Source: a virus. From it: DNA of 64,000 bases. The DNA lies in IMG/VR virus record IMGVR_UViG_3300000366_000001, positions 1 to 64,000 of that record, one strand, 5' to 3'. Under the pieces are notes generated by a model. The model was not told the DNA's origin. It ran no database searches and saw only the letters and a program-made list of their open reading frames with translations. A program made the translations under genes and the position numbers. Shown here in pieces: positions 2,495 through 60,628 of the stretch. Each line of letters opens with the position of its first letter. The stretch's first letter is position 1.

Positions 2495-5400
2495 TTAAAA
2501 ACCTTCAGCAGACCAGCTAAATTCACCAACATCTCTATTACCGTTTATATCAAATAAATAAGCAGTAAACTCTGATTGATCGCCTGCATTATCAAAGTCA
2601 TACAATGCATATTTAGCAACTGTGCCATCAGTTTTAGCCGTCATGGTTATGCTCTGAACATCTAAGAAATTCTGGTTAAACACGACTACTTTGCCATCGG
2701 CGGCAACGTCTATTATACCATTCCCTGAGTCGTATTTTTTTCTTATATCAAGTTTAAACTGTATTGACTGTAATGTTTCTAAAGGTCGTATTGAGCCCGT
2801 TTTCTCTGTTAAGTTTATTCTAAATTTAACATATCTGAAATCTCTAAAGAATTGATTGGTGCCTGTAAAGTTATCATAAGTAATACCGTCTTGGCTCCTA
2901 CTTAAAATATACTCTTTATCAAGTCCATCAACAAGAGTTTCCCATGTATCCGTAACAGTGACACGAGTTGAATCAATTATCGTTCCGTAGTCAACAACTA
3001 CTTCATAATATCCACCTGAAACATAAGACTTTTGCATCCAGTATACATAACCTTGATCTATGACATCCTGCAATGTATATCCGCTATCAAATGTAATTAC
3101 ATCATTATCAAAAGTGTAATCATCAGTTGAATCAAAAGTATTTGGTATGCTTAGCTCTGATAAAAAATCAGCATATGTTTTGTTAGTGTCAACTGTAAAT
3201 AATACGCTTGTATCCTTTTGGATATCAAAAGTAAAATCAGCAGTCGTATCAAATGTTATTTCAGTTGTATCAAATGTTGCTGGTGTATCTCTGAAAAACT
3301 TACCGTTATTAGCATCACCGCTGTTTAAGTCTACAAGCTGATTATCAACTAATACATAATCAGGAGGCACATCAAGCTCTACTTTTAGTGACGATCTTTC
3401 ACCTATATTACCGGCAATATCAACAGGCTCAACATAATAAGTGTAGGTTCCTGCATCAGTCTCAAATCGAGTAAAAAAGGTTGTATAGGTATAACCTATT
3501 TTTTGGAATCCACCTACAACAGCCAGGGTTTCTTTGTAAACATTGTAATAATCAATCTTGAAGCCAGATACAGGTTCGCTCCAACGAAGGTTGATATTAT
3601 TGTCAATTGTCTCAGCATTTATGCCTGTAGGCTTGCTAGGGTTAACAATATTTACATTCAAAAGTGACGCATTTTCACTAAAATTATCAACAACGTCAAT
3701 CGCTTTTATGTGATATTGATAATTTCCTGACTCCAAAGGAGATACAAGTTTCTGATTAGTTCTAAGTCTATCTATCTTAAATCCAGAATCCCAATTAAAA
3801 CCTTTTCTTATTTCATACTCTTTGACATCAAGCTCTTCATTAGGCAGCCACTCTAACAAAATTCCATCTTTTTGCTGGATATAAGAAAACCCTTGCACGT
3901 TCTCGGGAGGGCTAGACTTGCCAATAATAAGCACATTATCCAAAAGCAAAAACTCGCCAGCAATACCAAACTCAGTTATAAACCTGATTCTAAAGTCATA
4001 GCTTTGTTCATCCTGCAAACCTGCAACATAAACAAAGTCATTGGTAAAATCGAAAGTTTCTTTTTTGTAATCTCCGGTGCTTCCAGATGATCTATACTGA
4101 ACCTGAATAAAACTAGGGCTAGGTCTTTTTTGCTGCCCAGCGATTGCTTCAGGCTCTTTTACAACAAAGCCAGCTCTTGTTATAAGAGATCCATCTTGAC
4201 CTATCAACAGAGCCTCTTCATCTGTTACAACAGATATTGCAACAGGTTTGGCCGGGTCTGCGTACTGATCTATAGATATAACCGAATCGACAGGGCTGTA
4301 ATCCTGAATAATTCCATTTTCAGCATCAAATATAGCAGGGTCTGCATAGTCAACCAATGCAACTTCGCAAGAATCATCAGTTCCAGGTGTTTTTTCTTTA
4401 ACGATATATTTTTGAGTTATTGATTCCGCATCAGTGCCAGCGATTGCAATATCACCGACCTGCAATTCAGAAGGAACAGCATTTAAAGTTAAAGTAGCAC
4501 CGTCAACAGAAAATACATCATAAACGCTCAAATCCTGAATTTCAGTTCCAGCATATCTAAATGTAATCTTTGTTGCGCTATCCAACTGAAACGCTTGATC
4601 TAACTCAACGTCATTACCCGATATGGATTTAACGCGAGAATAATGCAAGACACCTTGAATCTTGTCGTGCGTCATTGATACCACATCACCACGCCTAAAG
4701 TATTTATGCTCTATACCAGTGCTTACACGGTATTCTTCAGGGCGCAACACCATCTGAGCTAAAGCGTATTTAGCGTATCTGTAAACTTGGTCAGGGTCTG
4801 TTATGCCATCGCAATTAATATCCTGAATCAAGGAATCGTTAACAAGTACATCGTTATCATTACGCTTAATAATTACTTCATCGACGTTGTAGTTTTTATC
4901 CTTGTTGGCAAACTTGCAGCGCAAGGCATCAGGGATTCGAGCAAACGTCTTGCTTGCACTAAATCCATAAGTGTTAGCAGGTGTCAACCTTGATACAGCA
5001 GGCTTGCCAGGAGTGTCATAAATGATGCTGTACTTGCCATCAATCATAGAATTAGATGCACGTCCAGTACTTGCAATTTTACGCGCAAGCTCACCCACAG
5101 TAGTCTCATAATCGACTACCGTGTTATATCTGTATCTAGGCTCAAGAGTTGAACCATCTCTAGATAAAACCTGTTCATCGCAAACAGCAGCCCAATCTAG
5201 GAAAGCATCAAGGTCAATTATATCGCCCCAATCATCTACTTCTCCACCTGTATCGTCCGGTGCAGATTCAGCTTGTATAAATCGCTTGTTGGCTGGCCCT
5301 GTCAATAGCTTTAAGAATTCCCAAGCATTGTTACCTGAAGCGTCGTCATCTTCAATAAAGTCGTTATCTTCTTCTGAGTAGCGCTCGACAACAGAAGAGC

Positions 5401-48815: not shown

Positions 48816-49205
48816 TTATTTTACACAAAACACTTCGTAACTTCCATCCTCATCATGGACTTCATTTCCAGTCAGAGGCGGGTTAAAAACACAAAGCAAA
48901 ACAGTCTCATCAATTGCCTCAAAAAAGTGCGGGTCATTCTCATCTAAAATGTAAGTTGTATCTGGAGTAATAATAAACTCCTCTCCGGTTTTAGCGTTTG
49001 TAAGCACCGCTTTACCCTTTACACAGTAACAGCTTTCAAGATGATTCTTGTAGTGCTGAAAAACCCTTCCAGCATCTGGACTTATCACGGTTTTTGTGAA
49101 GGTGTAACCCATTTTATCTTCCAGCAAAATTATGCGGTTACTTACGCCAGCATGAAATTCAACTTTCCTGCTTTCTGGCAATTGATTGGTTTTGATTACT
49201 TTCAT
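48816..49205 (-). CDS. ectoine-synthase-like cupin (EctC family)
   Basis: HYKNHLESCYCVKGKAVL...PDTTYILDENDPHFF...LLCVFNPPLTGNEVHDEDGSY aligns by eye with Halomonas EctC (HYKHHFEAVYCIEGEGEV...PGDIYILDQHDEHLL...[21 protein letters not shown]). Confidence 0.7.
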   Translation of the reverse strand: MKVIKTNQLPESRKVEFHAGVSNRIILLEDKMGYTFTKTVISPDAGRVFQHYKNHLESCYCVKGKAVLTNAKTGEEFIITPDTTYILDENDPHFFEAIDETVLLCVFNPPLTGNEVHDEDGSYEVFCVK

Positions 49206-50527
49206 TATTTATCACCCTTCTTGTTTAGATTATTGTATTTTTTCTGTATCTGCTTCTGTCTTGCAGCCTGCTCTTTAGTTGGAGCAAGACCCATATACTT
49301 ACAAGTATGATCGTTCTTTAAAATTGTCACTGCAAACCTTTTCCAGCTAGTTACATCTGAATTGTTGCAAGACAGCATATCCAAGTGATCTGGTGGAGTT
49401 TTTATTTTAACTCTACGTAAATCTTTTCTACCGTGACTGGTATATCCGTTCACAGTGAATTTTACACCTGCACTGTTTAGTTCGTCAATAGTTTTTTCTG
49501 GCAATCCGCGCCCCACTCTACCCCAATATCTTATAGATTGAATGAAGCGCCCCTTAAAATTTTCTGCGGTTTCCTCCGGCAAGGTATCGAGCAAAAACTT
49601 AACAAAGCTTTTCCATGTATGACCTTTTGGAAGACTTATATTTCTGTAATTAAGCTGCTTACCATAGGTAACCATAAAATTAGCCCCGTTAACTCTAGCG
49701 CAAAGCCTTGCCCAAATATGAGGATCTATAACCCTATAAAGGTTTAGGCTGGCCTTTGCCTCACTCATAAATGGTGACGCTACCCGCATAGATCCAACTG
49801 GTACACCAGCCTTGTAAAAAACATCATACAGCTTGTTGTAGTCCCACTCAAACTTAGCATTAGCAGCCCATACATCATCAGTGCGCCAATCATAAATAGG
49901 GTAACAATTAAAAACATTTTTAGTGTTTTTCTTTGTCCAGGCGTAACCATCAAGCATCTCCTTTCTATCGTTCATAATGGCTCTAAATCGGTTGAGGCTT
50001 TCTTGCGTCCTAATGCCAATAAGGTTGGCTGTTTTTTTTCCTTCGGCATACCACTCTGCAAACATATCCCAAAAGTGATCGTACTGCATGTTTTCTACAA
50101 ATTTATCCCCGAAAGGATGATTTTCAAAATTTACAACATAGTCATCTTCCGGCATTGGCCTTATCCATCTATCTTTATCACCCTCTCCCCAGCACTGCCA
50201 ATCTTGATCGTAAGCAGAAACGGTGCATGGTAATGTTATTGGCATGCAGCACCAATATACATCAAGATAATCCGAGTTATCTTTCAATATTCTGTGCATA
50301 AATTCAAGGCTTAAGTCATAATTTGCCTCGTTATCCATTATCTGAATACCAAGCTTTTTCTTTACATTGTTCTTTTTCATATAGTCAAGGCAAAGATTAA
50401 GCATTATCCCAGAGTCCTTGCCGCCTGAAAAAGAAAGATAGACCTTTTCAAAGTTATTAAAAATGTAATCTATGCGCTCCATAGATGCATCATATACGTT
50501 TTTACCTCTGTTGTATTGCCTGCGCAT
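49205..50527 (-). CDS. PAPS-reductase-fold protein with DUF3440-like C-terminus (IbrA-like)
   Basis: N-terminal PP-loop context YLSFSGGKDSG; 440 aa; ATG at 50527 after AAGGAG; TAATG junction with the cupin gene. Confidence 0.75.
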   Translation of the reverse strand: MRRQYNRGKNVYDASMERIDYIFNNFEKVYLSFSGGKDSGIMLNLCLDYMKKNNVKKKLGIQIMDNEANYDLSLEFMHRILKDNSDYLDVYWCCMPITLPCTVSAYDQDWQCWGEGDKDRWIRPMPEDDYVVNFENHPFGDKFVENMQYDHFWDMFAEWYAEGKKTANLIGIRTQESLNRFRAIMNDRKEMLDGYAWTKKNTKNVFNCYPIYDWRTDDVWAANAKFEWDYNKLYDVFYKAGVPVGSMRVASPFMSEAKASLNLYRVIDPHIWARLCARVNGANFMVTYGKQLNYRNISLPKGHTWKSFVKFLLDTLPEETAENFKGRFIQSIRYWGRVGRGLPEKTIDELNSAGVKFTVNGYTSHGRKDLRRVKIKTPPDHLDMLSCNNSDVTSWKRFAVTILKNDHTCKYMGLAPTKEQAARQKQIQKKYNNLNKKGDK

Positions 50528-50582
50528 CAACTCAACTCCTTAGCCAATTCAATTAACCTGTTCATTTTACCCGATCCGATTC

Positions 50583-50639: not shown

Positions 50640-51800
50640 TCAACACATTTCCGGCGTAATCCGCAACCTTCCCACTTCACCGTATTCAGTATGGTAGGTA
50701 ATGACCTGTGCTGACCTTTGGCTAATCCAACCGCCATGCGCTGCATAAGCGTCTGTGGCGGCCAAAGTCTGGTGTTGCTCAACTATCATCAGATTGTTTT
50801 CTTTAACGTCTTTAGAGTGCCTATGACCTAGATGGGCATAGCTGTACTTTGTACGCCCGAACATATCCCTAAATTTAGCTGCAAAAACATCAGCCACACT
50901 TCCAACGCCTTTACGGTGTCCATGATGAAAGAATAGGCTGTTATTACCAAACTCATAAGCGTAATAAACGTCAGGGCTTGTTTCAACTGTTACCCTGTCG
51001 TTTAAGCTGTAGAAGTGCGAAAACAGCTCTCTAAGCCACGCAGATGAAGCCATATCATGGTTTCCCTGGGCATGAACGATATGCACGTATTCGTGCTTTT
51101 CTAGCAGCATATCAACGACTTTAGTGAGCACCTTGATAGCTACCCTGACTACGTTTTGAAATCGCGTATCTGCATCAAGAATATGCTTGTGTTGTGGTGT
51201 TACCGCTTCTAATCCATCATAATGAAGCAAGTCTGCAATATTTGCCAAGATAGCCGTTTCTGAGTCGGGCGATTGCTTAATAGCTTGTTTAAACCAGTTG
51301 ACAAGTAAGGATTCAGCTTTCTCAATATCCCAATCCTCATTACCTGTTTCTTCACCCCATGCGTACATGCCAAGGTGGTAATCTGTAATTACATAAAGAT
51401 TCAGTAAGTCTTGATTGCTTGATTCCTTTGATTGGACTGGATAGCTTGCTTTCGGCTCTACCGACTCTTTCAGGGCTTCTATAGCGGCTTCCATAACCTT
51501 AAACTGGTCTTCTGCTTTCTTGTCAGTCTTAACCCATTGCAGTCTTGGCTTTCCCAAGTCATCATAAAGTGTGCTTGTTCCTTTTACAAAATGGGTATCA
51601 GGAGCTACCTTAGTCATACCCTTGTCAGGTGCATAACCTTGCAGGGCAGCCCTATCCTTTACGCGGTTAACCTGACGCTTCAGTGTTGTTCTATCCTTAC
51701 CTAAAAGCCTTGCAGCGGCATTAAGCGTACCTTTTTCAAGGTAGGCTTTAACTGATTCCGTCTCATGGTCTGTCCTGCAAAACTCAATTAATTTATCCAT
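50640..51800 (-). CDS. HTH domain fused to a calcineurin-like metallophosphoesterase
   Basis: N-terminal LNAAARLLGKDRTTLKRQVNR. Phosphoesterase motifs DYHLG, GNHD and GHRH. Confidence 0.65.
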   Translation of the reverse strand: MDKLIEFCRTDHETESVKAYLEKGTLNAAARLLGKDRTTLKRQVNRVKDRAALQGYAPDKGMTKVAPDTHFVKGTSTLYDDLGKPRLQWVKTDKKAEDQFKVMEAAIEALKESVEPKASYPVQSKESSNQDLLNLYVITDYHLGMYAWGEETGNEDWDIEKAESLLVNWFKQAIKQSPDSETAILANIADLLHYDGLEAVTPQHKHILDADTRFQNVVRVAIKVLTKVVDMLLEKHEYVHIVHAQGNHDMASSAWLRELFSHFYSLNDRVTVETSPDVYYAYEFGNNSLFFHHGHRKGVGSVADVFAAKFRDMFGRTKYSYAHLGHRHSKDVKENNLMIVEQHQTLAATDAYAAHGGWISQRSAQVITYHTEYGEVGRLRITPEMC

Positions 51801-51978
51801 TCTCTTTAACCTTTTGCTCTAAATAAAGAATATACTCTAGCATCTTTTCATGGTGACTGGATAATCTAAAGCATTCTGAATCTCTGTTTTTTCTGTAATC
51901 TTCTAGCAATTTACTATCAAGTCTTTCACCCTGGCAAAATCCTTTTCGCCATTCGTTTCTTTGATTAACTAGGTTCAT
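51793..51978 (-). CDS. hypothetical protein
   Basis: 61 aa; overlaps both neighbours by a few nt. Confidence 0.5.
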   Translation of the reverse strand: MNLVNQRNEWRKGFCQGERLDSKLLEDYRKNRDSECFRLSSHHEKMLEYILYLEQKVKENG

Positions 51979-52433
51979 TTTTCCAGATTATCTTCAACCA
52001 TTTTCATGGCAAAGGTATCAAATACTTTAACTTCGCCACCTGTGCATGAATCTCGTGTCATAGCGTACTCTACAGCCTCCTTTGCATTCATTCCAAAGTC
52101 AATAGCTGCCATAGCAAAGGGCGCTCCTGATCCAATCGAATAGCTGTTTAAATGATCTATGCTGTTTTTGTAAACCCCGCCTTCTTCACTCTGAGAAAGA
52201 ATGAATACACCTTCACTCTCTGCAATGATGATATTTGCCTCTAATAGATATTCGTGCATAGCTTGGTCTGAAATTGAAATAAGTTTATCAATATCGCAAG
52301 GGATGCCAGCACCAAAATAGTAGGCGTTATTGGAAACAACAAATTTATCCACATTTTCAGAAAGGATGATATTTCCGCTTGATTCTCTTGAGTCACAAGC
52401 AATATAGCGGCCATCAAATGCGATTGTAGTCAT
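51975..52433 (-). CDS. proteasome-type Ntn hydrolase (HslV-like)
   Basis: MTTIAFDGRYIACDSRESSGNII... parallels the HslV N-terminus (TTIVSVRRNGHVVIAGDGQ), with Thr directly after Met. Confidence 0.65.
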   Translation of the reverse strand: MTTIAFDGRYIACDSRESSGNIILSENVDKFVVSNNAYYFGAGIPCDIDKLISISDQAMHEYLLEANIIIAESEGVFILSQSEEGGVYKNSIDHLNSYSIGSGAPFAMAAIDFGMNAKEAVEYAMTRDSCTGGEVKVFDTFAMKMVEDNLEK

Positions 52434-52447
52434 TTAGTTATTCCTGG

Positions 52448-52975
52448 TTATTGGTAGGTCAGTGCGTAAGTCAATCTAGGTTCAGCTATACCAGTACCAT
52501 AGCATATATTTTTACCTTTGAAAACCCGTGTACCGTAACTTCCAACCTCAAAACCATTAATCTCTAGATCTAATCCTGACTCGGTTTTTACGGTTGTCAG
52601 CTTTTCTGTAAACTGTCTAAAGAATCCTTCTGCATCTTTTTTTACAGACTTATATTCATATGAACCGATTACAAACAATTCTATCTTCAAGAATATTCTG
52701 AAATGATACTCATCTAAAACAGGTTCATCACGATAGCACGGGGTTATCGCTTGATACCTGCCATCGCCAATATCATTATTAATGATACGCTGAAAAAATG
52801 ACTGCTCAGCACTAGCCACATAACAGAGACCATTATGTTTCAAATCTTCCCTTGATTCAGGTTTAGTAAAGTCGCTTACCATTTCATCCACAAGCATAGG
52901 CACTGATACAGGCTCGTAGCCAAGTAACTGATACCATTGCATGGCATTAAGAATTTTTAAAGAGTCAACTATCAT
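52448..52975 (-). CDS. minimal class-II aminoacyl-tRNA-synthetase-like catalytic core
   Basis: 175 aa. Motif-2-like CYRDEPVLDEYHFRIFLKIELF (compare SerRS CFRSEAGS...HQFDKVEMV). Motif-3-like GTGIAEPRLTYAL. Confidence 0.55.
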   Translation of the reverse strand: MIVDSLKILNAMQWYQLLGYEPVSVPMLVDEMVSDFTKPESREDLKHNGLCYVASAEQSFFQRIINNDIGDGRYQAITPCYRDEPVLDEYHFRIFLKIELFVIGSYEYKSVKKDAEGFFRQFTEKLTTVKTESGLDLEINGFEVGSYGTRVFKGKNICYGTGIAEPRLTYALTYQ

Positions 52976-53223
52976 TTTCTATACCCCGATTTAAATGCTA
53001 GTTTTGTAGCATCTGACATCGCTTTAAGGTCATTCATTTTCATCCCGAACTTAAATTCAATATACCCCTCTATTGCCCCATACATATCTGACAGCTCTAC
53101 CAACTCCATAATAAGGTTGCCTTGCTCTTGAGACTCTAAAACCTCATCAGCCTCTTCCATTACTTTGGAGAAATGACCGTAGACACCTTTTTTAATAACT
53201 CTATTATGATAACTCATAAACAT
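52972..53223 (-). CDS. MazG-like NTP pyrophosphohydrolase
   Basis: 83 aa; has EEADEVLE...ELVELSD acidic helices. Confidence 0.55.
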   Translation of the reverse strand: MFMSYHNRVIKKGVYGHFSKVMEEADEVLESQEQGNLIMELVELSDMYGAIEGYIEFKFGMKMNDLKAMSDATKLAFKSGYRK

Positions 53224-60160: not shown

Positions 60161-60237
60161 TGGTACGCTAGGCAGGACTTGAACCCGCAACCTAGTGGGT
60201 AGAAACCACTTGCTCTATCCAGTTGAGCTACTAGCGT
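60161..60237 (-). tRNA. tRNA-Arg (anticodon UCU)
   Basis: Hand-folded cloverleaf. Acceptor ACGCTAG/CTAGCGT, D stem GCTC/GAGC, anticodon stem AGTGG/CCACT with loop TTTCTAC, T arm GCGGG-TTCAAGT-CCTGC, CCA encoded. Confidence 0.85.
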
Positions 60238-60239
60238 AT

Positions 60240-60311
60240 TGGAAGGCAGGACGGGACTCGAACCCGTATTATCTGGGCTTGCAATCCAGTACTTAACCAG
60301 TTCAGCCACCT
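60240..60311 (-). tRNA. tRNA-Cys (anticodon GCA), short D arm
   Basis: T arm ACGGG-TTCGAGT-CCCGT, anticodon loop TTGCAAG, acceptor with two G.U pairs and one mismatch, 3-bp D stem, CCA encoded. Confidence 0.65.
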
Positions 60312-60552
60312 ACCCATAAAAACAAGGAGAGCGCCCCTTGCAGTGCCCTCCAAGGCCATAACCTGACGGCATAGGTCGGCTAAAAAACCAACTATAGCAC
60401 CAGCCTGATAAACATGCTATAGCGACTCTCGCTATTTGAGCATCACCCTACAAGGATTTGTTGGGGATAGGCTTGCGGGGTAATCTATGACTTACTGTTA
60501 ATGCAATGACTGTATTTTTTTTGCCAATGGTTCGCAGTAGGTCTTATTTTAT

Positions 60553-60628
60553 TGGTCGGAATTAAAGGACTCGAGCCTTTGACCCCCTGATCCCAAATCA
60601 GGTGCTCTACCAACTGAGCTAAATTCCG
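60553..60628 (-). tRNA. tRNA-Pro (anticodon UGG)
   Basis: Acceptor CGGAATT/AATTCCG, D stem GCTC/GAGC, anticodon stem CCTGA/TCAGG with loop TTTGGGA, T stem AAAGG/CCTTT, CCA encoded. Confidence 0.85.

Follow-up and report, generated by a model that had tools for sequence, protein, structure and literature searches.

A minimal SerRS-like synthetase core is paired with a MazG-like protein in large phages and in some cellular genomes

Introduction

Three small open reading frames (ORFs) lie tightly packed on the minus strand at positions 51975-53223 of a 64,000-nucleotide stretch of viral DNA (IMG/VR record IMGVR_UViG_3300000366_000001, positions 1 to 64,000; hereafter the window). They encode a 175-residue protein that resembles the catalytic core of a class II aminoacyl-tRNA synthetase (aaRS), an 83-residue MazG-like protein and a 152-residue HslV-like protein. 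None of these resemblances is due to chance. What might so small a synthetase core acylate, and which of its neighbors does it work with? A preliminary description, made from the sequence, proposed that the three genes form one operon and that the core, acting on a non-tRNA acceptor, is coupled to a self-compartmentalizing protease; the MazG-like gene was treated as incidental. Here, we report that the conserved unit is instead the MazG-like gene together with the core. The cassette belongs with the tRNA-independent aaRS paralogues, and its interest does not come from a link to a protease.

The synthetase core

The core matched phrog_4806, a family that PHROG labels 'histidyl tRNA synthetase', at 2.6e-49. 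It scored just below the cut-off of the Pfam model tRNA-synt_2 (24.0 bits against 25) and had no match in NCBIfam. We used a 51-sequence alignment of core relatives both as the profile for a search of PDB and as the input for AlphaFold2. The best profile match was SerRS (2dq3, 9e-7), followed by PylRS at 1e-5 and, more weakly, by PheRS-alpha and AspRS. No HisRS, HisZ, AsnA, EpmA or amino acid:carrier-protein ligase was found by this search at E ≤ 10. We therefore rejected the kinship with HisZ or HisRS that the PHROG label suggests, as well as kinship with the carrier-protein ligases, AsnA or EpmA.

The AlphaFold2 model (pLDDT 96.8, pTM 0.91) has its strands and helices in the order expected for class II. 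When it was compared to PDB with Foldseek, there were 643 matches at E ≤ 0.001, and the best 50 of the 643 are catalytic domains of PylRS and SerRS (TMq 0.63-0.76; 0.72-0.76 at the top). The best structural match is PylSc, the class IIc catalytic domain of PylRS (2zce and others, E 1e-9, TMq 0.72-0.75), which, like the core, stands alone without a classical anticodon-binding domain. PylSc differs in having about 250-280 residues, a deep hydrophobic pocket and extra tRNA-contacting elements; its identity to the core is 14%, and the pocket signature of the core is SerRS-like. In a search of the BFVD viral models, uncharacterized phage proteins came first, and the first canonical match was a giant-virus SerRS. 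The modeled 175-residue protein shows the class II fold in full, together with motifs 1, 2 and 3. Profile and structure searches both place it with SerRS and PylRS and not with an unrelated fold. It is shorter than every class II catalytic domain that it matched in PDB (PylRS catalytic domains have 246-282 residues), in keeping with the unusually small size remarked on in the preliminary description.

That description had also pointed out motif 2 (CYRDEP...HFRIFLKIELF) and motif 3 (GTGIAEPRL). Both are present, and their key residues do not vary among 250 diverse relatives, which represent clusters at 50% identity as well as cellular loci. Twelve positions are 100% invariant in this set: S55, E57, P79, C80, R82, F95, K97, E99, E143, S146, T161 and R167. 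Motif 1 is conserved less strictly (G19 88%, P26 97%). When aligned with hhalign to E. coli SerS, the core gave a probability of 88%, with motif 3 aligned locally, and the element preceding motif 3 could be matched by eye (Table 1). The signatures in common with bacterial-type SerRS, a class IIa enzyme, are (T/S)AE, TPC(F/Y)R(S/D)E, F-x-K-x-E-(L/M), E-x-x-S and G-(S/T)-G-x-A-x-x-R.

In PMC8821087, the motif-2 arginine is described as holding the amino-acid carboxylate and the alpha-phosphate of ATP, and the motif-3 arginine as holding the adenine and the gamma-phosphate. Both of these 'arginine tweezers' of class II enzymes are kept in the core, as R82 and R167. Across the family, the residues with which class II enzymes hold ATP and the carboxylate or amino group of the amino acid are all invariant. 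The conservation extends to the side of the pocket facing the amino acid. In the Thermus thermophilus SerRS-seryl-adenylate structures of Belrhali et al., several positions reportedly touch the amino group and hydroxyl of serine. They comprise the TxE element, the FxKxE glutamate, the serine that follows the Mg-binding Glu and the Thr or Ser of motif 3, and each is kept in the core. The 175-residue protein is a SerRS-like catalytic-core remnant whose adenylation site is intact and which is apparently active.

What surrounds the catalytic core in canonical enzymes is missing. The protein begins at motif 1 and stops eight residues past the motif-3 arginine. It has no tRNA-binding arm (no match to PF02403) and no anticodon-binding or editing domain, the latter as the preliminary description had stated. 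The N-terminal arm of SerRS is given as the critical contact to tRNASer in PMC8821087. SerRS has about 430 residues including this coiled-coil arm, whereas the core has 175, lacks the arm and has all of its loops trimmed. It falls below the cut-off of the canonical SerRS family (TIGR00414 / PF02403 + PF00587), and a fused archaeal relative of the core scored 18 bits against a serS cut-off of 301.65.

This reduced form is typical of the family. An exhaustive profile search recovered 1,179 clusters at 50% identity (E ≤ 1e-30), nearly all with members of 175-200 residues, and as a rule no tRNA-binding domain is appended. Some members are longer; apart from fusions to MazG and to an RNA polymerase alpha C-terminal domain (alpha-CTD), their N- and C-terminal extensions are mostly unrelated to each other and uninformative. 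By tblastn, the core is present in 274 GenBank phage records, mainly large phages of Escherichia, Acinetobacter and Caulobacter. The family is therefore already catalogued, under inconsistent names: histidyl-tRNA synthetase, seryl-tRNA synthetase or hypothetical protein. Mentions in the literature are at the level of annotation, and the gene of phage RXM has been taken as a genuine SerRS. A comparative paper on jumbo phages (PMC7824862) does not describe the pair of core and MazG.

The MazG-like partner

The genes are transcribed in the order MazG-like, core, HslV-like; the preliminary description had placed the ORFs correctly and listed them in reverse. The start of the core gene and the stop of the MazG-like gene overlap in an ATGA, from which translational coupling is predicted. 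Two in-frame ATGs six bases apart open the MazG-like ORF. The second, at 53217, is the more probable start (MSYH...), since AAGGA lies flush against the first and the homologues have M(S/G)YH at their N-terminus.

The 83-residue protein matched phrog_6408, a family of unknown function, at 2e-28. Curated models were reached only below threshold: the PRA-PH model PF01503 at E = 0.027 (15.3 bits against a cut-off of 21.3) and TIGR03188 at E = 8e-4 (19.5 bits against 42.7). The MazG metal motif, E23-E24-x-x-E27...E43-x-x-D46, is invariant in 35-79 partner sequences, as are Y5, H6, K20, T73, F77, G80 and R82. The AlphaFold2 model is a three-helix structure (pLDDT 90.8). In the Foldseek comparison, PRA-PH and MazG proteins take all the top ranks (2a7w, PRA-PH, probability 0.98; 3cra and 7yh5, MazG; 2yxh; 1vmg), with E-values of 0.7-3, and such weak values are expected of a protein so small and helical. 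Motif and model together support the earlier assignment of this protein as MazG-like, with HisE as its nearest flavor and pyrophosphohydrolase as its predicted activity. The metal site is intact, to judge from its residues. The likeness to HisE probably explains why PHROG calls the core family 'histidyl tRNA synthetase'.

Conservation of the pair

We called ORFs in 80 IMG/VR viral loci that encode the core and searched them with iterated hidden Markov models. The initial scan found the MazG-like gene in 77 of the 80 loci, and a re-check, which added the copy of L015, raised this to 78 intact genes and one remnant, in L018. The gene is almost always directly upstream or directly downstream of the core, and the two overlap by 4 nt in 19 of the loci. 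In one viral locus (L054) they are fused in the order aaRS->MazG. Among family representatives, P0229, P0153, P0172, P0186, P0155 and P0189 are also aaRS->MazG fusions, and P0221 has the reverse order, MazG->aaRS. The same pairing is found in the annotated phages KMB37, Vibrio phage 2.275.O and Kimel. All-versus-all clustering of the ORFs from the 80 loci revealed no third conserved gene, and the gene downstream of the pair differs in nearly every lineage; a third conserved partner was therefore rejected. Since the MazG-like gene is near-constant, the HslV-like gene is rare and no third gene is conserved, the conserved unit is a two-gene cassette.

Exceptions are rare. In L018, a record of about 164 kb, the remnant has 37 residues and lies upstream of an intact core. 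No MazG-like partner was found inside the flanks examined of L008, L097 and L099.

The cassette also occurs in cellular genomes. We scanned one genome per prokaryotic species, a search limited by pattern, and obtained 21 loci: four in Saccharibacteria, six in archaeal metagenome-assembled genomes (MAGs), mostly Nanoarchaeota and Woesearchaeota, and several in bacteria where the context looks like that of a prophage. The MazG-like partner is present in 19 of the 21. In each of the six archaeal loci, core and partner form a single aaRS::MazG protein of 267-274 residues. One Nanoarchaeota MAG (L090) encodes a canonical full-length SerRS (PF02403 + PF00587) about 0.9 kb upstream of its fused core::MazG gene. 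Because both coexist in this MAG, the small core does not replace the normal SerRS. A Mur ligase gene flanks the cassette in L108, and with flanks such as these at least some copies are cellular.

Several neighbors of the cassette lean toward nucleotide metabolism. In three DPANN loci, a radical-SAM gene of about 225 codons (PF04055 + Fer4_12) lies downstream of the fused aaRS::MazG gene and overlaps it; its product fits no curated subfamily and has sub-threshold likeness to proteins including MoaA, viperin, NrdG2 and QueE. In the Saccharibacteria locus L096, a P-loop gene resembling nucleoside or nucleotide kinases (AAA_28) precedes the MazG-like gene, shares an overlap with it and seems to form an operon with it and the core, and a kinase-like AAA_28 gene is near the cassette in L108, on the opposite strand. 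Among the phages, the flanks contain RNR, helicase and NrdD/G genes in KMB37, glutaredoxin-related genes in Kimel, and MazG, dNMP kinase and ThyX genes in RXM; in the window, exonuclease, clamp and PhoH genes belong to the same kind of context.

Some loci carry additional domains or genes. The MazG-like partner of some jumbo phages and of rhizobial, prophage-like loci is fused, on one side or the other, to a His-rich, cupin-like domain of about 190 residues. This domain has the motifs FGLGFIQLK...HFW...HDHRY...ILKG...FH and matches phrog_4784 (unknown function, 7e-13) and, weakly, phrog_4786 ('cysteine dioxygenase'); it has no Pfam match. The domain may contribute an optional third enzyme to the pathway. 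It is not encoded in the window, and we rejected it as a part of the cassette here. In phiCbK-like Caulobacter phages, an alpha-CTD-like helix-hairpin-helix domain (PF03118, 3e-6) is fused to the N-terminus of the core, and because of this fusion GenBank calls the whole protein an RNA polymerase alpha C-terminal domain protein. In Justusliebigvirus phages only (E. coli phage KMB37, and also L051 and L056), the cassette is directly followed by a gene for a 144-residue YqeY-domain protein (PF09424, 4.6e-7, 30.4 bits against a cut-off of 27) that resembles GatB-C and is annotated 'GatB'.

Possible functions

The MazG-like protein and the core very probably constitute a real module of two physically coupled enzymes, and from its active-site residues the core is likely to be an active adenylating enzyme. 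That the functional unit is a MazG/HisE-like pyrophosphohydrolase with a minimal SerRS-like core acting on a non-tRNA acceptor is our preferred reading, one that we hold tentatively and put at a little under an even chance. In the mechanism that we propose, the core, probably as a motif-1 dimer, would convert a small alpha-amino acid and ATP to an aminoacyl-AMP, freeing pyrophosphate. Its pocket would be serine-like, as the residues match the serine binders of SerRS. The acyl group would then pass to a non-tRNA nucleophile, because the core lacks all tRNA-binding appendages, including the SerRS N-terminal arm. In the same complex, the MazG-like subunit would split a nucleoside triphosphate, modified or not, between its alpha- and beta-phosphates, a step that would either make or process the nucleotide partner of the ligase reaction. 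Such a cassette could serve the nucleotide-linked metabolism of replicators that live on host pools: large phages, Saccharibacteria and DPANN archaea.

We rate these parts differently. An acceptor other than tRNA is somewhat better than an even bet. The preliminary description had proposed the same, which is reasonable for a protein with no tRNA-binding domain. That the acceptor is specifically a nucleotide or a nucleotide derivative is unlikely on present evidence. More doubtful still is the most specific form of the idea, in which the core and its partner are one enzyme and the activated amino acid goes, in place of tRNA, to a free nucleotide or to an acceptor derived from a nucleotide. In DPANN archaea, the two are literally one polypeptide.

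There is a precedent for the concept. In the SerRS-like amino acid:[carrier protein] ligases, a small amino acid is adenylated by a shortened SerRS-type core and passed to a non-tRNA acceptor. Those of the Bradyrhizobium Bll0957 and Agrobacterium Atu2573 type have about 300 residues, trace back to the methanogen-type, zinc-dependent SerRS and have a carrier protein encoded beside them. Here, in contrast, no carrier-protein gene is conserved among the loci. From SerRS itself, the core differs in having the MazG-like enzyme as an obligate partner.

Several observations weigh against the preferred reading. Position 91 of the core is His in 89% of the 250 relatives and corresponds to the second motif-2 arginine of E. 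coli SerS, an arginine with a role in ATP handling; with His in its place, ATP handling may differ from that of canonical enzymes. The predicted serine specificity depends on the equivalence of residues to those of SerRS. The clues from nucleotide-related neighbors are restricted to certain lineages and could reflect the shared ancestry of a few MAGs. We found no functional or biochemical study of any family member in the literature. Finally, the downstream YqeY gene, the alpha-CTD fusion and the 4 of 60 loci in which the cassette is inside a tRNA cluster hint at nucleic acid or tRNA.

These hints keep alive the strongest of the alternatives, an enzyme directed at tRNA, which we consider unlikely. 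The core would aminoacylate the CCA end of a tRNA or tRNA-like RNA, or act on it in another way. RNA binding would come in trans or from accessory domains, and the substrate of the MazG-like partner would be a nucleotide or RNA-end by-product. A class II core is normally the part that binds A76. The carriers are mostly large, tRNA-rich phages, with the cassette inside the tRNA clusters of L017, L026, L044 and L046, and three tRNA genes lie about 7 kb away in the window. Yet the YqeY and alpha-CTD associations are each confined to a single lineage, and the family rule is that neither the SerRS arm nor any other RNA-binding domain is present. The motif-2 loop is short and acidic (RDEPVLDEYH), and the median isoelectric point of the family is 5.0. 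tRNA genes occur within 4 kb of the core in just 10 of 60 loci, a linkage that is weak at best and that we did not retain.

A lower probability goes to a HisZ-like regulatory subunit. The core would then be a sensor of amino acid and ATP that controls the MazG-like enzyme allosterically with no acyl transfer, tying the clean-up of nucleotide pools to amino-acid status. A precedent is HisZ, a paralogue of class II aaRSs: it regulates a nucleotide-metabolizing enzyme, and the next step of its pathway is carried out by HisE, a member of the MazG family. The partner here resembles HisE/PRA-PH most among its family matches (PF01503, TIGR03188, 2a7w), and obligate pairing and fusion would fit an enzyme with its regulator. 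However, the whole catalytic set, and not the ligand pocket alone, is invariant in the 250 sequences, and because of this complete invariance a sensor role is disfavored. The profile finds SerRS, PylRS, PheRS and AspRS rather than HisRS or HisZ, and the hisG linkage typical of HisZ was not seen among the neighbors of the core.

An AsnA-type small-molecule synthetase is improbable. In such an enzyme, the adenylated carboxylate would be attacked by an amine or ammonia to give an amide, for example an amino-acid amide, and the MazG-like protein would just supply or remove nucleotides. AsnA is itself a tRNA-independent paralogue of a class II core, the best Pfam match of the core is to the D/K/N core family PF00152, and occurrence in auxotrophic genomes of the candidate phyla radiation (CPR) and DPANN would fit a salvage or biosynthetic step. 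AsnA, EpmA (PoxA/GenX) and GluQRS are all aaRS cores without anticodon domains and acylate ammonia, a protein lysine and a modified nucleobase, respectively. They differ from the core described here in belonging to other subclasses, in their size of about 300-330 residues and in having no known tie to a MazG enzyme, and none was recovered by the profile search. The signature of the core (TxE, FxKxE, ExxS, GTGxAxxR) is SerRS-like and not class IIb-like, and an AsnA-type reaction leaves the near-obligate fusion or coupling to a MazG enzyme unexplained.

The database names 'histidyl' and 'seryl tRNA synthetase' are misleading for the interpretation of phage genomes. Among natural class II synthetase cores whose active site is complete and strongly conserved, this one, with 175 residues, is about the smallest. 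It offers a natural test of the minimum protein needed for amino-acid activation and bears on debates about 'urzymes' and the origin of aaRSs. The near-obligate pairing or fusion with a MazG/HisE-type protein defines a two-enzyme module across more than 1,000 sequence clusters, carried by many therapeutic-candidate phages of E. coli and Acinetobacter as well as by genome-reduced Saccharibacteria and DPANN archaea. If the acceptor were a free nucleotide or a compound derived from one, large phages, DPANN archaea and CPR bacteria would share an unrecognized, aaRS-derived nucleotide-aminoacylation chemistry, and the core would be the smallest natural active class II synthetase core.

The HslV-like neighbor

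The 152-residue protein scored above the cut-off of the Pfam Proteasome model PF00227 (22.8 bits against 22.4) and matched phrog_1040, 'peptidase HslV family', at 7e-31. Its N-terminus, MTTIAFDGRYIACDSRESSG, had been read as HslV-like with a Thr nucleophile exposed after removal of Met. The alignment agrees, with Thr2 on the mature Thr1 of proteasome beta5. Over the beta5 pattern TT...D-S-R...K, GSG...GG-V-V-F, the MTT N-terminus, D14-S-R, K30 and G-S-G are kept, and these motifs are common to HslV and proteasome beta subunits. The 171-residue HslV chain 1m4y_A was weakly matched, and the protein here is shorter.

In this phage, the HslV-like gene is contiguous and co-directional with the cassette. 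The 14-nt spacer that separates it from the core gene contains AGGA, and no terminator-like site was found among the three genes. Co-transcription of all three is therefore plausible, and the HslV-like gene is probably transcribed with the core. The conserved unit is the pair of MazG-like gene and core, and we give almost no credence to a three-gene operon in which the core tags proteins or metabolites for, or works with, the protease: an HslV-like gene is within about 4 kb of the core in 8 of the 80 viral loci (3.3-4.3 kb away) and adjacent in none, it is absent from all 21 cellular loci, and most members of its family belong to other phages, with records of about 40-90 kb from phages of Salmonella, Pseudomonas and Vibrio. 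Synteny, phage spectrum and absence from cellular loci thus contradict the coupling on which the preliminary description had laid weight. The HslV-like gene is an unrelated neighbor whose juxtaposition with the core is local and outside the conserved module.

Surroundings of the locus

The source element is a tailed phage. Megablast found no close relative in GenBank, and the best protein identities are at most 54%. Coordinates of all features are collected in Table 1.

Table 1. Features of the cassette, of related loci and of the surrounding window. Locations without a locus name are window positions or residues of the core.
Feature	Location	Strand	Basis or counterpart
MazG/HisE-type all-alpha nucleoside triphosphate pyrophosphohydrolase-like gene, 83 aa as called	53223..52972	minus	phrog_6408, metal motif, model
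Minimal SerRS-like class II aaRS catalytic core gene, 175 aa	52975..52448	minus	phrog_4806, profile, model
HslV/proteasome-beta-type Ntn-hydrolase-like gene, 152 aa	52433..51975	minus	phrog_1040, Pfam Proteasome
ATGA start/stop overlap, MazG-like gene / core gene	52972..52975	minus	...AGA AAA TGA / ATG ATA GTT
Core motif 1	G19-Y20...P26
Core TxE-like element	S55-A56-E57		SerS PTAE, core SAE
Core motif 2	P79-C80-x-R82...F95-x-K97-x-E99		SerS TPCFRSE, core TPCYRDE (R82); SerS FDKVE, core FLKIE (F95, K97, E99)
Core pre-motif-3 element	D136...E143-x-G145-S146		By eye: SerS YDLEVW...EISSCSN, core LDLEIN..EVGSY (D136, E143, S146)
Core motif 3	G160-T161-G162-x-A164-x-P166-R167		SerS GSGLAVGR, core GTGIAEPR (T161, R167)
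MazG-like remnant	L018:3853-3963
Canonical SerRS, Nanoarchaeota MAG	L090:798-2093		PF02403 + PF00587
Radical-SAM genes, DPANN	L089:3786-4472, L092:3810-4475, L100:3794-4477		PF04055 + Fer4_12
Kinase-like gene, MazG-like gene and core, Saccharibacteria	L096:2094-2750, 2741-3004, 3001-3546		AAA_28 (kinase-like gene)
Kinase-like gene	L108:1411-2595	opposite to cassette	AAA_28
Cupin-like::MazG fusions	L037:3163-3990, L057:3058-4005, L060:2773-3591, L070:2950-3855, L077:4555-5424, L006:3319-3993
Cupin-like::MazG fusions, further loci	L088:2172-2990, L095:1722-2621, L106:2076-2873
Alpha-CTD::core fusions, CcrColossus / CcrPW type	L075:3743-4597, L081:3743-4597		PF03118
YqeY-domain gene, E. coli phage KMB37	L001:4589-5023		PF09424
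61-aa ORF	51793-51978
PAPS-reductase/DUF3440 (IbrA-like) gene	49205-50530		PF11922, 1.6e-61
129-aa ORF	48816-49205
tRNA genes Arg-UCU, Cys-GCA, Pro-UGG	60161-60628	minus

Beyond the HslV-like gene, the operon side continues with a 61-aa ORF and then a gene for an SbcD-like exonuclease. The ORF shares 4 nt with the end of the HslV-like gene and 8 nt with the start of the exonuclease gene, and it has no match in Pfam, PHROG or PADLOC. PADLOC returned no defense-system match for the four small proteins, and membership of the cassette in a defense system was rejected on this basis. Upstream of the cassette are genes for an Rv2179c-like 3'-5' exonuclease, a DnaN-type clamp and PhoH; the three tRNA genes of the window are farther upstream. 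The window also encodes an IbrA-like protein of the PAPS-reductase/DUF3440 type, directly followed by a 129-aa ORF.

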